Positions 3,902 to 22,991 of a stretch of DNA of 36,774 nt are shown here, piece by piece. The stretch is from a bacterium (GTDB lineage Bacteria > Zhuqueibacterota > Zhuqueibacteria > Oceanimicrobiales > Oceanimicrobiaceae): assembly GCA_046757025.1 (NCBI GenBank), contig JBHHXN010000037.1, positions 1 to 36,774 on the forward strand. Direction: 5' to 3'. The notes beneath the pieces are model-generated. The model was not told the DNA's origin. It did no database searches and saw only the letters and a program-made list of their open reading frames with translations. Positions within the stretch are counted from its first letter, which is position 1. Every line of letters starts with the position of its first letter. Both the position numbers and the translations under genes were made by a program.

Positions 3902-4465
3902 ATGGACTCAATCGAGAACTTCCTTGGAAACCTAGGGACTTCCCTGGTCCTTATCGTAATAGTCGGAGCGCACATCCTGGAGGAGGTGTTTGCATCTTAC
4001 AACGCGTCTGGCGGTACCGGTCGCCTTAGAGGATTCCGCCGCTTTTTCAACCTGGAGTGGTTCCAGACGGGTAGAGAAGACTTTCCAGTCACGAGGCTTA
4101 AAGCCCTTGTCGTTGACCAGGTCGGTCTCTTCATGGTTTTGACTCTGCTCGCCCTTCTCGCCCTGGTCCCGGGCACCTTCTGGCCCAACCTCATTTGGGT
4201 GGCAGTTGGATTCATAACAGCGGACTTGATCCAGCACGGCGTGTTCAGCCTCGGGCGGCGAAAGTACTCGCCAGGTGTTGCAACCAGCGCCCTGTACCTC
4301 ATCTTCGTCGTTTATTTCTTTCTCACCGAGCTTGGGGGAGTGAACGAGAATGTGAATCCGTTGTTACCATTGGCTATTGGTACGGCCGGCTTGCTCAGCA
4401 ACTACATCCTGGCTTCCAGGAAGGTCCGAAAGTGGCGTCAGAGTCGCGAGCCCGTCCCAGCCTAA
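3902..4465 (+). CDS. HXXEE-domain membrane protein
   Basis: HILEE motif after the first hydrophobic helix, later QH and YSPGVATS motifs, about 5 TM segments; SD aaggagg. Confidence 0.8.
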   Translation: MDSIENFLGNLGTSLVLIVIVGAHILEEVFASYNASGGTGRLRGFRRFFNLEWFQTGREDFPVTRLKALVVDQVGLFMVLTLLALLALVPGTFWPNLIWVAVGFITADLIQHGVFSLGRRKYSPGVATSALYLIFVVYFFLTELGGVNENVNPLLPLAIGTAGLLSNYILASRKVRKWRQSREPVPA

Positions 4466-14012: not shown

Positions 14013-16853
14013 ATGAACGACTTAAAAGTTCTTTTAACCGGCATGATGCTGTTTTTCTGCTCTGTCGGAGCTGCCGAATTGCAGGCACAAAGCTCCGGTG
14101 CACAAAAATCCCTGGCTTTGGATTTGCATGCTAAGCTGCCACTGGACCCGAAAATCACCGTGGGCACCCTGGAAAACGGGCTCACCTACTATATTCGCGA
14201 GAATAAAAAACCCGAGAACCGTGCGGAGCTGCGGCTGGCCATCGACGCGGGTTCGGTGCTGGAGGAAGACGATCAGCAGGGCATCGCGCACTTTATCGAG
14301 CACATGGCCTTCAACGGCACTAAAAAATTTGCTCGGCAGGAGATCATCGATTACCTCGAATCCATCGGCATGCAATTCGGGGCAGACATCAACGCCTACA
14401 CCGGTTTCGATGAAACGGTGTACACTCTGCAGATCCCAACCGACGACGCCGAAATCGTCGAAACCGCTTTCCAGATTTTAGAAGAGTGGGCGCATAACAT
14501 CCGTTTTGAGGAAGAGGAAATAGAAAAAGAACGCGGAGTGGTCATCGAAGAACGGCGGCTGGGACGCGGCGCTGCCGCGCGCATGCTCAACAAACAGTTT
14601 CCCATCCTGTTCAAAAATTCTCGCTATGCCGAAAGATTGCCCATCGGAAAAAAAGACATTCTCGAAACCGCGCCCAGAGAGGCGTTTCTCGATTTCTACC
14701 GCAAATGGTACAGCCCGCATCTGATGGCGGTGGCGGTGGTAGGCGACTTCGATACGGCTACCATCAAAGATATCATCGAACGCCATTTTTCTCGCATCCC
14801 GCCCGTGCAGGAGGTTGAAGCTCGGCCGCTGTTTCCCGTACCCGATCATGACGAAACCCTGTTTGCCATCGCCACCGACGTAGAAGCCACTGGCACCAAC
14901 GTCAGCGTTTATCACAAACACGACGTCCATGATGAGCAAACCTACGGCGCTTACCGACAAACTATCCTGGAGCTGTTGTACAACAGTATGTTGAACAATC
15001 GTCTGGCGGAACTGCTGCGAAAACCCGAACCGCCTTTTTTACAAGCCTATTCGAACAACGGTCGATTCGTACGCTCCAAAGATTTTTACTATTTAGTGGC
15101 GGCGGTGAAAGAAAATCAGATCCTGTCCGGGTTGGAAACGCTGCTGCTGGAAGCCAACCGCGTAAAACAGCATGGTTTCACGCAGTCGGAGCTGGATCGC
15201 GAAAAAACCGCCTTACTGCGCAGCATGGAGCGGGCTTTTAACGAACGCGATAAAACCGAATCCAGCAATTATGCCGATGAATACATTCGCAATTTTCTCA
15301 CTGGCGAACCCCTGCCCGGCATCGAAGTGGAGTTTGAGCTTTTCAAAACATTCCTTCCCGAGATTCAACTGTCCGAAGTCAACCGTTTGGCCGATCAATG
15401 GCTGAGCGAGAAAAGCCGCGTGGTCATGGTCAGCGCACCAGAAAAGGAAGACGTGCCCATCCCCACAGAAAGCGAGCTGACCGAACTTCTGAACGCAGCG
15501 ACCAGAAGGTCCGTCTCCGCTTACGTGGATCATGTGACGGATTTGCCGCTGGTGGAGCACCCACCCGTTCCCGGTGAAATTGTGTCAGAAAAAACCATTC
15601 CGGAATTGGACGTCACCGAATGGACCTTATCAAACGGCGTCAAAGTGGTTCTGAAACCCACTGACTTCAAAAACGATGAAATTCTTTTCGGCGCCAGCAG
15701 TCCGGGCGGCCATTCGCTGGTTTCCGACGACCAATATGTGGCCGCGATTTCGGCCACCGCCATCGTGGAAGAATCCGGGTTGGGCAAATTTGATTTGATT
15801 GGCCTGCAGAAGAAACTCGCCGGTAAAATCGTGCGGGTATCGCCTTGGATCAATTCATTAGAAGAAGGGTTGTCCGGTGGCGCCGCGCCCCAGGATCTGG
15901 AAACCATGATGCAGCTTATTTATCTGTATTTTAACGCGCCCAGAATCGACAGCACTGCCTTTCTGTCCTTTCAAAACCGCATCAAGGGCGCCATTCAAAA
16001 TCGGCACGCCAGTCCAAATGCCGCCTTTCAGGACACCCTGCGTGTGACCATGGCCAACTACCATTTTCGCCGCAGACCGTGGTCGGAAGCGGTGCTCGAC
16101 GAAATGGACATGATGAAATCGTTCCAAATCTACCGGGACCGCTTTGCGGATGCCAGCGACTTTACTTTCTTTTTTGTTGGAAACTTTGAACTCGACAACA
16201 TGAAGCCGCTCATTCAAACCTATCTTGGCGGGCTGCCGGCCATTCATCGCAAAGAGACGGGCAAAGACGACGGCATCCACCCGCCCAAAGGTGTCATCGA
16301 GAAAGAAGTGTTGAAAGGGCTGGAGCACAAGAGCCGGGTCAGCCTCATTTTTACAGGAAATTTCAACTGGAACCGGGAAAACCGCCACCACATCACGGCC
16401 ATGGTCAGCGTCCTGCAAATTAAACTGCGGGAAGTTTTGCGTGAAGAGCTGGGCGGCACCTACAGCGTGGGCGTCTGGGCTTCGACTACCCACTATCCGC
16501 GAGAAGAATACCGCATCAATATTTCTTTTGGCTGCGCCCCCGAGCGCGTGGACGAGCTGACCCGCACCATTTTTCATCAAATCGACAGCTTGCGAATTTA
16601 CGGCACCACTGAAAAATATCTGCAAAAAGTAAAAGAAACCCAGCGCCGCAATCGCGAAACCGATTTAAAGGAAAATCGTTTCTGGCTGGGCGCTTTGCAA
16701 TCTTACTACTACCACCAGGAAGACCCCCTGAAAATACTCGAGTATGACCAGGAAATTGAGGCGCTGACTTTGGAGGACATCAAGCATGCGGCGCAAAGAT
16801 ATTTTAACAATGAAAATTACGTGAAGGTGGTATTGTATCCGGAAAAATCGTGA
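14013..16853 (+). CDS. Exported M16 zinc metallopeptidase (PqqL-like)
   Basis: Signal peptide; HFIEH inverted zinc motif, NAYTGFDET, EKERGVVIEE; second half with LSNGVKVVLKPT and LREELGGTYS. Confidence 0.93.
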   Translation: MNDLKVLLTGMMLFFCSVGAAELQAQSSGAQKSLALDLHAKLPLDPKITVGTLENGLTYYIRENKKPENRAELRLAIDAGSVLEEDDQQGIAHFIEHMAFNGTKKFARQEIIDYLESIGMQFGADINAYTGFDETVYTLQIPTDDAEIVETAFQILEEWAHNIRFEEEEIEKERGVVIEERRLGRGAAARMLNKQFPILFKNSRYAERLPIGKKDILETAPREAFLDFYRKWYSPHLMAVAVVGDFDTATIKDIIERHFSRIPPVQEVEARPLFPVPDHDETLFAIATDVEATGTNVSVYHKHDVHDEQTYGAYRQTILELLYNSMLNNRLAELLRKPEPPFLQAYSNNGRFVRSKDFYYLVAAVKENQILSGLETLLLEANRVKQHGFTQSELDREKTALLRSMERAFNERDKTESSNYADEYIRNFLTGEPLPGIEVEFELFKTFLPEIQLSEVNRLADQWLSEKSRVVMVSAPEKEDVPIPTESELTELLNAATRRSVSAYVDHVTDLPLVEHPPVPGEIVSEKTIPELDVTEWTLSNGVKVVLKPTDFKNDEILFGASSPGGHSLVSDDQYVAAISATAIVEESGLGKFDLIGLQKKLAGKIVRVSPWINSLEEGLSGGAAPQDLETMMQLIYLYFNAPRIDSTAFLSFQNRIKGAIQNRHASPNAAFQDTLRVTMANYHFRRRPWSEAVLDEMDMMKSFQIYRDRFADASDFTFFFVGNFELDNMKPLIQTYLGGLPAIHRKETGKDDGIHPPKGVIEKEVLKGLEHKSRVSLIFTGNFNWNRENRHHITAMVSVLQIKLREVLREELGGTYSVGVWASTTHYPREEYRINISFGCAPERVDELTRTIFHQIDSLRIYGTTEKYLQKVKETQRRNRETDLKENRFWLGALQSYYYHQEDPLKILEYDQEIEALTLEDIKHAAQRYFNNENYVKVVLYPEKS

Positions 16854-17095
16854 ACTTGGTTGTTCAATCATTTCTTTTTGTTACCGAGGACTTGGGTAGA
16901 TTATCAGGCAAGGCCCCGCTCAGGAGTATTTGGTGGTGCTTGCACAATTTCTGTTCAAAGATTGTTTGGTCCGGACGCCCAGGACTTTTTTCGTTTGATC
17001 ACCAGCAAACTTGACTCGTTTTGCCAAGGCAGTCGCAATTATTTTTTATCATTGTAAAAATCTAAATTCTGAAAATTTTACCGGAGGGCTACATC

Positions 17096-18226
17096 ATGCT
17101 TCTGTTTAATTTCTCAAAAGCGGGGATATTTTTAATAGGCTTCTGCGCCTTCGCCTTTGCGGCACAGGCGAAATCCCTGTCGATGCAAAAAATCAAGGTA
17201 TTTGAAAGCACCACCAAAACCTGGCATGAATCCACGGCTTTGATCGGCAGCCAGGAAGTGTTTTTGCCCATGACTTTATTGGCAACGGAATTTGGGCTCA
17301 CCAGGAAAAATCTCACAGACGACAAACTGGGCATCTGCCTGAACGAAATCTGCATTCCGTTCTCGAAAAACACAGGGGAAACATCGATTCAATTTCAACA
17401 TGGCCAGGAATACGTGCCGGCACGGCATCTGGTGAAAGCGTTGAACGGCCACATTGTTTGGGACGCCGAACAGGCGGAATTGCTGCTGAGTTTACGCCCG
17501 TACCAATCGGAGTCCGGGCAATTGAACACGGCCGTGTCAGATTTCACCTTACCCGATATGCAAGACAATCCGGTGGCCATTTCGGATTTCAAAGGTAAAA
17601 AGGTCATCGTATTCGCCTGGGCTTCTTGGTGAGCCTGCCGCGAATATTTGCCCGGGTGGCAAAAATTTTACGAGGCGAATCAGGATCAGAATTTCGAGCT
17701 GGTGACGGTGGCAGAAGATGTGCAGGGGGCTGAAAAGGCCCTGCCCTGGCTGAAAAAAGCCCATGCTCGTTATGTGACGCTCATCGACCGGGAAAACCAA
17801 TTGGGCAGTCGTTTCCAGGTCAACTATGTGCCTCTCACCATCCTTTACGACGAAACCGGCAGAGTCGTGCGCGGGCCGCAGCATTTTAACGGTAGTTCTT
17901 CGAAATCTTACGAAGAGCTTAGTAACTGGCTGCGAAATGGCCAAAGCGCCCTCACACAAAAAGGCCTTTCCAAACCCGAAAAAGCCATGGGGTTCGAATC
18001 GCCGGAAGCAGAGCTGCGGTTTCAGTTGGCCGCGTTACTCATTCAGCAGGGAAACAAACCACTTGCGCTCAGACAACTGAAAAGCGCTTTGCAAAAAAGT
18101 CCGAACAATTTCATTATTCTCAAGCAGATCTGGGCCATCGAAAATCCAGAGCGCTTCTACTCCAGCAAAGTAGATTTTAAATGGCAGCGCGAGCAGCTAA
18201 AACAAATGACCGAGAAGCCGGAATAA
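17096..18226 (+). CDS. Putative selenoprotein: exported TlpA/peroxiredoxin-like thioredoxin-fold protein (376 aa, Sec179) with C-terminal TPR-like region
   Basis: ORFs 17096-17632 and 17648-18226 are in frame and joined by TGG TGA GCC TGC CGC GAA TAT TTG, giving DFTLPD...KGKKVIVFAWASW-U-ACREYLPGWQKFY. The UGA occupies the position of the attacking Cys of the TlpA WASWCxxC site. Confidence 0.88.
17633..17676 (+). promoter_or_regulatory. Bacterial SECIS-like hairpin
   Basis: Upper stem tttgcc 17647-52 / ggcaaa 17658-63 with loop CGGGU, 20 nt after the UGA; basal pairing gcct 17633-36 / aggc 17673-76. Confidence 0.7.
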
Positions 18227-18348
18227 TCTCCATTGAAATCGGCCAATTAAAACTTGTACCAAATCGTGATCGATCGAAAAATCTCTTTTCTTGTCATCTG
18301 TGCAGTGCGAAGCAGGGTAAAAAATGGCCTTTTGGGTCAAGCACTATT

Positions 18349-18499
18349 TAGTGTCCATCCGTCATCGTCATTCCCGAGTGCTCCCTGCTTAAAACATGCA
18401 GGGACAAGCTCATCGGGAATCTCGTGCCTAACGGAACAATGGATTCCCGCTTAAAGATTGCGGGACTGACAAAAAAGGGCTCTTTACGGATGGACTCTA
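18349..18499. mobile_element. MITE-like element with 14-bp terminal inverted repeats and GTCATTCCCG/GGGAAT REP core
   Basis: tagtgtccatccgt 18349-62 / acggatggactcta 18486-99 (13/14 inverted match); TATTTA at both junctions; internal gtcattcccg...cgggaat and ggattcccgc...gcgggactgac. Confidence 0.65.
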
Positions 18500-18501
18500 T
18501 T

Positions 18502-18659
18502 TAGCGTCTGAACGAAAACTCGAGAAATACGCGAGATAAAAACCTCTTCGCGATAGTGTTCCTTCGACAAAGCTAAAGACAGGCCCCGCCGAACCAGATA
18601 GGAATTCACCCTCGGCCAGGAGGCCTTCGGGAAGATTGGGTCGTTTTGGTCAAGCACTA
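18502..18659. mobile_element. Second MITE-like element abutting the first
   Basis: Left end tagcgtctgaacgaaaac; right end cgttttggtcaagcacta; TATTTA junctions; 18608-18659 is an inverted copy of 23106-23159. Confidence 0.6.
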
Positions 18660-18777
18660 TTTAAACTGAAACATAAATACGAGATTCTTTGCTTTGCTCA
18701 AAATGACCTCGCCCATCTAATTTTCCTCGTTTTTCACTCACTCAGTCAACCCTTTAAACCCAATCTGCCATTTTTCC

Positions 18778-20172
18778 TTATTTGAGCAGGATCAGGCGCT
18801 TGGTTTGCAAAGCCTGGTCGATCTTGATTTGATAAAAATACATGCCGCAGCTCACCTCCCTGCCGGATTCATCCTTACCATTCCAGATGACAGAATGCGC
18901 GCCGTCCGGCCAAATTTGATCACCTGAGATTAGCTCCTTTACCAGACCGCCACTCAAGTTGAAAACATTTAGCTTCACGGGCGTTTTCAGTAGCAAATGA
19001 AATTCGATGCGGGTTTCGGCGTTGAATGGATTGGGATAATTCTGCCGCAAAATAAGCCGGTCTGGCGGCACCCCGACGCGGGTCTCAGCAACGCCTGTTA
19101 CCTTTTCACAATCGCCATAATCAAACAAAAAATAAACTCCGCAATCCGACGCAAACACCTGCTCGGAGCTGTGCCCGACGCCGGGCAGAATCACCTGTTT
19201 GTGCTTCTCCGTGATACTGCCGCCAAATTCCTCTTGCAAATAGTGGTAGTAAACACGCCCCCTCTCCAGACGATGCTTTCCTTGCAGCATGGCGGCGCAA
19301 CTTTTGTCCAGACTCGAAGAGTTGGGATTATTGTCATCTGCACCCAGAAAATAAACCATTCTTCGCTGCGGGTACTGAGCTCGAATCCGCTCCGCGCCTA
19401 CGCGCTTCATGTACCGGTTCAGAAACTTCAAACCGTATTTATAGTCGTGATAGTTTGGACAGTCTTGTATGGTATTTTCAGACGGCACAGCAAACTGATC
19501 CAGGCGACCACCGACCCGGCGTTTTTCACTAAAATACAAATAAGAGGATGGATTCGCCACCAGGTAGGTCATCTGAATGCCAAATTCCGACATCAACACC
19601 GCTTCGGTTTGGTTCCCCGCTGCATAACGATTCACAAACTGACCGCCTGCCGAATGCCCGGCCAGCACGATATTTTGAAGATTTGGATTCAGCGAAACCA
19701 GTCTGAAGAGAATGGTGTCGATGATGGCAAAGGAGCTGATTTCGGCTGGGCGCTCATGCTCAAAAGAGGCCTGTGATTCATCGCCCTTTTTCCAGCCGCT
19801 GCTGCTCCAAAACAGCGTGTAATCGAGTAAATCGAAGGCTTCGATATCTATCTCTAAAAGAAACTGCGGCGCCAAAATGAGGGTGGTGCTGTCTGCCCGG
19901 CCGGCGCGTCGGGCTGGATTGAGAATCCGTTCGTAATAATCTCTGGCGTTGCGATTGCTGCCGTGAATGACAATGACCGCCCGTTTGATATAGTCATGTA
20001 TTTGATCCAGTGAATAGTTTCTAAAATAGGGCACCGCCAGAATGTGGCCGTCCAGATTCAGCCGGATGAGCCGCGGCGCCACCACCACCACCGGCGTCTG
20101 AGCAGAAAGCGCGCTGAACAATCCGCTCAAGACCAAGCAAACTATCGGGACTATTTTAACGAGTCGATTCAT
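18778..20172 (-). CDS. Secreted alpha/beta-hydrolase with C-terminal T9SS-type/FlgD-Ig domain
   Basis: Signal peptide from MNRLVK (ATG 20172); VIHGS, LAPQF, GHSAGGQF, ANPSSY, GVGHS; C-terminal LRQNYPNPFNAET...WNGKD...GMYFYQI. Confidence 0.85.
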   Translation of the reverse strand: MNRLVKIVPIVCLVLSGLFSALSAQTPVVVVAPRLIRLNLDGHILAVPYFRNYSLDQIHDYIKRAVIVIHGSNRNARDYYERILNPARRAGRADSTTLILAPQFLLEIDIEAFDLLDYTLFWSSSGWKKGDESQASFEHERPAEISSFAIIDTILFRLVSLNPNLQNIVLAGHSAGGQFVNRYAAGNQTEAVLMSEFGIQMTYLVANPSSYLYFSEKRRVGGRLDQFAVPSENTIQDCPNYHDYKYGLKFLNRYMKRVGAERIRAQYPQRRMVYFLGADDNNPNSSSLDKSCAAMLQGKHRLERGRVYYHYLQEEFGGSITEKHKQVILPGVGHSSEQVFASDCGVYFLFDYGDCEKVTGVAETRVGVPPDRLILRQNYPNPFNAETRIEFHLLLKTPVKLNVFNLSGGLVKELISGDQIWPDGAHSVIWNGKDESGREVSCGMYFYQIKIDQALQTKRLILLK

Positions 20173-21851: not shown

Positions 21852-22991
21852 CTACATACCATCGCCGAACAGTTTTAACAGCTCCAAACCGGGGGTCAAC
21901 AATCGGCCGCCGGAAATGTTGCAGATCATCGCTACTACCACTTTTTCATCCGGCAGCATACACAACACCGTGTTGCCGCCGACGGAGCCGCCAGTGTGAC
22001 CCACGGCTATCTTACCGTTCATTTTCCAACGTCGCCACCCCATACCGTAGTTGGTCTCTTTCCCCGAATTTGTTTTCTGCGATTTGAACAGCAGCTCCAC
22101 CGTGGACGGTTTCAGAAAGTCGCTGTTGATCACGGCGTTGCCAAAAATCACCAGATCTGTGGCCGTGGACAAATAGCCGCCGCCGGCCCATTTGTAGCTG
22201 TTATCCACGTAAGGTGCGTTTATCAATTGGCCTGCTTGGTTTTTCACATAAAAACGCGTGCGGTTGTAGATGATTTCGGCATTCAAGTCCGCCACGGTCT
22301 GAATCATGCCCAGCGGTCGGATGACGTTTTCTCGCATGTAACTTAGGAAATCCTGACCCGAAGCCCCTTCCACCACCGCGCTGATCAAATTCCAGCCGTA
22401 GCTGGAATACTGATATTTCTCACCGGGACGGTAGAGCAGGGTATCGCTGGCAAATATATTCAAACCCGCGGTCACGCTGTCAAAATGCCGGTTCATTAAA
22501 AATTCCTGTCCGCGATAGTGCCGGATGCCCGCCAGATGGCCCGCCACCAAACGTGTGGTAATGGGGTATTTTTTTTCAGGAAAAGACGGCACATATTTTT
22601 GCACAGGCGCATCGAGATCGAGCTTACCCTGCTCGTACAACAACGCCACGGCAACGGAAGTCAGTGATTTTGACACGCTGCCGATGCGCATTTTGGTGTG
22701 CGGCCAAACCGGCACGCGATTTTCCACGTCTGCGTATCCAAATCCTTCCGCCCAGATGATGCTGCCGTTTTTCAAAACCGCTGCGGTCAAGCCGGGAATT
22801 CCCAGCGTGTCGATGTGCGTTTGCAGCATTTCCCGCGCCCGGGAGATGACCTGCGAATAATCGGAATCCTGCGCTGCCACCAAATATGGCGTACCGGGTT
22901 GGGCTGCAGCGAAGTTGCCTGGAATTAAAAATAGCAGCAGTGCAAAACACCCTGCTCTAAAATAATTTTTCACATCTTTTGGTAAATTCAT
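21852..22991 (-). CDS. Exported serine hydrolase, beta-lactamase / D-peptidase family
   Basis: Signal peptide; IGSVSK (SxxK), YQYSS, AGGG and GHTGG motifs; SD aaggagg. Confidence 0.9.
   Translation of the reverse strand: MNLPKDVKNYFRAGCFALLLFLIPGNFAAAQPGTPYLVAAQDSDYSQVISRAREMLQTHIDTLGIPGLTAAVLKNGSIIWAEGFGYADVENRVPVWPHTKMRIGSVSKSLTSVAVALLYEQGKLDLDAPVQKYVPSFPEKKYPITTRLVAGHLAGIRHYRGQEFLMNRHFDSVTAGLNIFASDTLLYRPGEKYQYSSYGWNLISAVVEGASGQDFLSYMRENVIRPLGMIQTVADLNAEIIYNRTRFYVKNQAGQLINAPYVDNSYKWAGGGYLSTATDLVIFGNAVINSDFLKPSTVELLFKSQKTNSGKETNYGMGWRRWKMNGKIAVGHTGGSVGGNTVLCMLPDEKVVVAMICNISGGRLLTPGLELLKLFGDGM

Follow-up and report, generated by a model that had tools for sequence, protein, structure and literature searches.

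The locus at 17096-18226 on the plus strand of the window (the whole stretch of 36,774 nucleotides of bacterial DNA analysed here) is annotated as two genes that are very likely a single gene, with an internal UGA that would be read as selenocysteine (Sec). The explanation that best accounts for the data overall, to which we give a probability of about 70%, is a gene with Sec at codon 179 whose product is a predicted exported thioredoxin-fold enzyme using a U-A-C site for the exchange of envelope disulfides. An earlier sequence-only reading of this DNA had called it a hidden selenoprotein; this is supported, annotation splitting the gene at the UGA. The kind of protein has been catalogued since 2008 (UGC-containing Prx/TlpA-like selenoproteins, NF041054), and the window's branch is a variant of it. 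The finding is thus mostly a correction of annotation, the function being predicted. The following features were delineated:

17083..17087, plus strand: Shine-Dalgarno-like GGAGG, 8 nt 5' of the ATG at 17096, from the sequence
17096..18226, plus strand: complete gene of 376 codons, UGA counted as Sec, with TAA as its stop; AlphaFold2 model from 83 sequences with Cys substituted for Sec, mean pLDDT 91.4, pTM 0.88, N-terminus of low confidence
17096..17170, plus strand: predicted signal peptide, residues 1-25, by inspection (Lys, hydrophobic core, A-Q-A end)
17180..17491, plus strand: N-terminal beta-rich domain, residues 29-132, with C81-x4-C86, from the AlphaFold2 model; PF07833 at E=0.004, below cut-off
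17528..17950, plus strand: ResA/TlpA-type thioredoxin fold, residues ~145-285, with P246 at what we take to be the cis-Pro position, from Pfam and PDB alignments
17630..17638, plus strand: redox motif U179-A180-C181 where helix 180-194 begins, its TGA at 17630-17632
17642..17668, plus strand: putative bacterial SECIS, upper stem 17647-17652 pairing with 17658-17663, loop CGGGU at 17653-17657, 20 nt after the UGA
18002..18214, plus strand: pair of TPR helices plus a helical tail at the C-terminus, KQIWAIE lying at 18122-18142, from Pfam, alignment and model

An in-frame UGA codon at the redox site

From the ATG at 17096 the frame runs through 178 codons to FAWASW, reaches the TGA at codon 179, and continues as ACREYLPGW, staying open for 197 codons up to the TAA at 18224-18226. 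A standard gene caller breaks it into two ORFs, the second of which begins at a TTG at 17648; as the sequence-only reading had remarked, inspection found nothing SD-like at the usual spacing upstream of this TTG, in contrast to the GGAGG that precedes the ATG. The coding score per dicodon is 0.37 and 0.51 on the two sides of the TGA, marking both as coding; in the genome-wide reference of 20,964 TGA sites flanked by open frame before and after, only 62 exceed 0.25 on both sides. A full orthologue with 60% identity and the same TGA was recovered from one of 60 relatives (G008), a genome that also carries selA. Comparison of the two genes gave 57/41/93 changes at the three codon positions 5' of the TGA and 71/31/112 3' of it, with third positions dominating. 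Across the five codons from the TGA to the TTG the residues are the same in both genes, and three of the five differ synonymously. Further, the TGA is unchanged in contigs from four samples of one study, labelled as a hydrothermal vent metagenome, these being contigs, which drop rare variants, rather than raw reads, with two of the samples being possible sources of the window DNA. A promoter and terminator scan of 16700-18900 recovered no plus-strand site, its counts being at chance level.

The gene is patchily distributed, being present in two of 167 genomes of the phylum, and a genome-contig scan with the single protein yielded 11 loci, all of them partial matches with 33-45% identity. A single metagenome scan, with the patterns KQIWAIE and KK[VT][IA]VFAW, which make the sample lean toward the KQIWAIE branch, recovered 135 relatives, indicating that the branch is widespread. 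The best 80 of these 135, along with the window gene and that of G008, constitute a set of 82 loci, within which L071 duplicates G008 and several others are near-copies or truncated. Column 179 of this set is TGA in 78 loci, TGC or TGT in four, and never TAA or TAG, over a G+C range of 0.29 to 0.73. This pairing of TGA with Cys codons, which the sequence-only reading had proposed to look for, joins the continuous frame and the coding character of both sides in bearing out its claim that a UGA at the redox site links the two ORFs. The four Cys forms probably represent about two lineages; L122 and L124 group together in a quick tree (a tree that does not include L133), and the single match of a length-matched word-index homologue search, P0002, is the TGC form in L072. 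The middle residue of the motif in the 78 TGA loci is Gly in 45, Ala in 29, and Met, Ile, Thr or Ser in one each. The sequence does read U-A-C instead of U-G-C, as had been pointed out, but with 29 of 78 TGA loci this is a common variant and no rarity.

In protein databases the branch is usually filed as two fragments: of the 150 best protein representatives, 11 have W-x-x-W as their last residues and 36 represent the C-terminal portion, just as had been anticipated for standard pipelines. The 34 intact database homologues with the short motif have Cys (22), Ser (six), Asp (five) or Trp (one) at column 179, a set that over-represents non-Sec residues because TGA forms cannot occur in it. A non-Cys residue at this column had been named as evidence against a selenoprotein, and 12 of the 34 do have one; however, eight of these 12 have lost the second Cys too, and for this reason we read them as degenerate members, with the Ser and Asp forms being presumably redox-dead. 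Six relatives, P0018, P0020, P0024, P0029, P0051 and P0060, are full-length and keep the architecture, but their first redox residue is Ser, Asp or Asn, and most lack the second Cys, which suggests that the scaffold has a non-redox role in them.

Selenocysteine machinery and a probable SECIS hairpin

The source genome (94.8% complete) encodes the entire Sec apparatus that the sequence-only reading had said should be sought, namely selA (580.8 bits), selB (362 bits), two selD genes (406.4 and 379.7 bits), all above their curated cut-offs, and a tRNA-Sec with anticodon tca (65.3 bits, also above cut-off). The selD genes lie at G000:C344:1415-2341 and C73:3532-4455; the latter has an in-frame TGA and adjoins selB, while the former lies within a 755-codon frame and is probably a fusion. 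Seven further in-frame TGA candidates in this genome were chosen by eye, and on read-through five of them match known selenoprotein families, namely HdrA, a deiodinase-like protein and three DUF3179 proteins, with the remaining two giving no match. Each of the DUF3179 genes (L157, L158 and L159, on G000:C28, C335 and C16) has an in-frame TGA, and one of the three passed a strict hairpin test, weakly. The product of L160:114-923 on the minus strand (G000:C6, TGA at 86952) starts with a hydrophobic stretch; its gene has an in-frame TGA, giving M-T-U-G-C-P, and downstream of that a SECIS-like hairpin that is strong at -9.1 kcal/mol. With zero matches in a Pfam and NCBIfam scan, this product is a candidate uncatalogued selenoprotein. 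A second candidate selenoprotein, likewise with zero matches in a Pfam and NCBIfam scan, is encoded at L156:91-636 on the minus strand (G000:C45, TGA at 3935); it is predicted to be membrane-anchored, and has N-Y-U-V-G-C, a U-x-x-C motif, in what looks by eye like a thioredoxin-like protein.

The bacterial SECIS consensus, in the portion of PMC13188914 that describes it, comprises a loop of 3-9 nt, a stem of 4-16 bp, a G within the first two loop positions, a distance of 16-37 nt from the UGA and an MFE of at most -7.5. The window hairpin agrees with it in its CGGGU loop, its 6-bp stem (UUUGCC/GGCAAA) and its 20-nt spacing, and the 48 nt after the UGA have an MFE of -14.2 (-5.2 for the upper hairpin alone). 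The folding energy of the 71-nt region is no better than that of shuffled sequences (z 0.10), and of 3000 TGAs sampled, 126 are followed by a hairpin of this class that is as strong. Because the hairpin by itself is no stronger than chance, the case for a SECIS, an element that the sequence-only reading had not brought up, rests on the family.

The stem and loop are encoded by codons L185-P186-G187-W188-Q189, and across the family their synonymous positions are strongly constrained. The stem Leu codon is CTG or TTG in 63 of 64 distinct TGA stretches, where the remaining Leu codons in these genes predict 29.3, and the pairing of its first position with the third position of the Gln codon holds in 63 of 63, against 49.3 expected (CTG:CAG 49, TTG:CAA 13, TTG:CAG 1, CTG:CAA 0). 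All 64 TGA forms have G-G or G-U in the loop, as opposed to none of the four Cys forms, two of which also have a broken stem. A pair count over 46 sequences, hand-picked from the 78 TGA loci, found 93.5% paired, a value that none of 500 shuffles attained and that compares with at most 57.6% in slid controls. The synonymous stem pair in these 46 loci is C-G in 36, U-A in nine, U-G in one, and never mismatched, counts of covariation that are inflated by the kinship of the sequences; three of the six stem pairs never vary, as the protein sequence dictates them. When the window is compared with G008, no base differs in the five codons of the stem-loop, whereas about 60% of the other identical residues are encoded by different codons. 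These patterns point to a hairpin kept by selection on synonymous bases in the TGA forms.

Thus UGA179 is almost certainly decoded by Sec insertion, and the two other fates that the codon might have are both extremely improbable. One is that the TGA is a true stop, arising from a recent nonsense mutation or a sequencing error, or separating two distinct polypeptides. It is indeed a normal stop in this genome, terminating 914 of 2493 long frames, the hairpin taken alone is unremarkable, and the two halves are stored as separate proteins in public databases. Yet a true stop would hardly explain the occurrence of TGA at one and the same codon in nearly all loci across such a G+C range, its agreement in the contigs of the four samples, or the conservation of codons 180-184 as protein, and it would split the modelled fold between strand 169-175 and helix 180-194. 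The other is that UGA is read as Trp or Cys independently of the Sec system, for which one might cite the intact homologue P0075 that has Trp at this column at the protein level; against this stand the use of TGA as an ordinary stop, the presence of the Sec system, and the hairpin features, which track the TGA forms.

Protein architecture and predicted activity

The central domain of the protein is recovered by PF00578 (AhpC-TSA; 56.8 bits against a cut-off of 26) and PF08534 (Redoxin; 46.3 bits, above cut-off), while the TPR match of the C-terminal region is below the Pfam cut-off and PF07833 (copper amine oxidase N-terminal domain) matches weakly, with E<=0.01 in seven of 54 members. In alignments with the structures 2yp6, 4hqz and 3kcm, which have a gap of one residue within the motif, residue 179 is matched to the first Cys of WASWCGPC or WATWCPPC; this agrees with the earlier proposal that Sec replaces the attacking Cys of a thioredoxin fold. 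In the model residue 179 follows strand 169-175 and directly precedes helix 180-194, with further helices at 303-373. P246 is invariant in all 54 alignment rows. Members of the branch come in long and short forms, which we counted after setting aside loci whose 5' end is open and six more whose starts are masked or broken: a hydrophobic N-terminal stretch is present in 22 of 23 long-form loci as against one of 25 short-form loci, and the Cx4C pair in 23 of 23 as against none of 25. The window protein is a long form, and is therefore predicted, with a high degree of probability, to be exported.

Its activity is probably thiol-disulfide exchange outside the cytoplasm. By analogy with established Sec biology, SelB with Sec-tRNA would bind the GG loop 20 nt downstream of the UGA and insert Sec. 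In the manner of thioredoxins, the selenolate of Sec179, located where the helix starts, would then attack a substrate disulfide, and Cys181 would resolve the mixed bond to leave a Se-S ring. With a motif one residue shorter than CxxC, this ring is likely to be strained and fairly oxidising. The TPR tail and the N-terminal domain would be likely to bind clients, and C81-C86 is likely to be a structural disulfide formed after export. We lean weakly, by a slender margin, to isomerisation or repair over pure reduction, because a Cys-Gly-Cys peptide is PDI-like and the predicted ring is strained and oxidising; in the part of the preprint that reports it (bioRxiv 10.64898/2026.01.27.701630) this peptide has an E0' of -0.167 V and mimics PDI, a value for a free peptide and not for a Sec-containing thioredoxin fold.

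The main rival proposal is that the selenoprotein is a peroxidase, or that it reduces a dedicated partner in one direction only, for example apocytochrome c or an exported methionine sulfoxide reductase. The top Pfam match, AhpC-TSA, and weak GSHPx matches at E<=0.01 in 30 of 54 members would fit such a role, and so would the closest solved structures by sequence, which include ResA, TlpA and StoA, presumably all reductases. Moreover, the family is named Prx-like in the relevant sections of a 2008 survey and a 2022 review. Still, we consider this proposal unlikely: the motif with its flanks, W-A-S-W-U-x-C, is of the TlpA type, the motifs in that section of the review are different ones (TxxU in peroxiredoxins, UxxT in GPx-like proteins), and no such partner family is prominent by eye among the neighbours of the 82 loci. 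More generally, with neighbour clusters judged by eye, the largest is found in 10 of the 82 loci and none is family-wide, so no partner is indicated.

As for the immediate surroundings, an M16 zinc peptidase gene (window 14013-16853, plus strand) lies 242 nt upstream on the same strand, and by inspection a homologue is upstream in G008 too. Just 3' of the gene, at 18345-18480, is a repeat of ~135 nt with at least 40 long genome matches of 86-100% identity among 40 of 123 candidates that were scored; its summed depth in the metagenomes is very high, and it resembles an element of the REP or MITE type. Further on, at 21852-22991 on the minus strand, is a beta-lactamase-fold serine hydrolase (PF00144, 218 bits), which falls far short of the thresholds of those class C beta-lactamase models that are listed.

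Relation to known redox families

The preferred reading, an exported Sec-dependent thiol-disulfide exchanger, sets the protein beside ResA, TlpA, StoA and related CxxC thioredoxins (2yp6, 4hqz, 3kcm, 3erw, 1jfu and 1st9), with which it shares the fold, the flanking motif and the Pro position. Unlike it, these have CxxC with Cys and without Sec, and their matches span residues ~140-280, but not the N-terminal domain or the tail. The equivalog models are all under their cut-offs, with 52.2 of 170 bits for ResA, 53.2 of 230 for TlpA and 53.6 of 210 for StoA.

A closer parallel is offered by the UGC-containing Prx/TlpA-like selenoproteins, of which 46 sequences are tabulated in the portion of PMC2398784 consulted, and which are treated also in passages of PMC9312934 and PMC13188914. 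By the descriptions in these passages, a comparison of descriptions and not an alignment with the published example sequences, they too combine a PF00578 domain with a three-residue motif containing a single Sec, and the published U-G-C is literally the motif of 45 of the 78 TGA loci of the window's branch. U-G-C is the sole motif that these passages name, and they are silent on architecture, export and function. Our literature search found no experimental study of the family, and the branch may already be listed in papers or supplements beyond that search. A bolder proposal is that the KQIWAIE branch constitutes a separate selenoprotein family outside current models, almost always Sec-coded and with an exported long and a cytoplasmic short form, the exported one being an envelope Se-dependent disulfide isomerase with a natural U-x-C site; we put this forward tentatively, and regard it as doubtful in this full form. 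The family is a well-folded natural test case for redox motifs one residue short, with Sec, Cys and Ser/Asp versions together.

The nearest catalogued family is NF041054 (WAxxUGC_long, 'ResA-like WAxxUGC motif-containing protein'), which ranks first among 18,950 models (150.9 bits, E 5e-44). Model positions 25-200 match the thioredoxin domain together with the Cx4C region, and positions 242-333 match the tail weakly; protein and model alike have the shortened W-A-x-x-U-x-C site, although the window protein has W-A-S-W-U-A-C, with the same spacing and Ala in place of Gly. In contrast to these likenesses, its score is far from the curated cut-off of 300. The G008 orthologue, scored without its masked N-terminus, attains 145.5 bits, and all 12 KQIWAIE-type loci that were scored fall between 129 and 167 bits; among 31 relatives scored, P0046 and P0051 alone reach 300 bits, with P0039 at 109. 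Also unlike NF041054, the window protein has a tail with KQIWAIE-x-P-x-x-F-Y, which is absent from the higher-scoring proteins in the compared alignment. In a quick tree, the base of which is poorly supported, nine proteins scoring 194-321 bits form one branch (SH-aLRT 98), with the window protein outside it, grouping with L035, L072 and L073. The model gives the window's branch about half its cut-off, so that many selenoproteins would be retrieved by adding a model with the motif relaxed to U-x-C. The window protein would work like the WAxxUGC proteins, yet it falls outside the NF041054 cut-off, and its branch is missed by the model.
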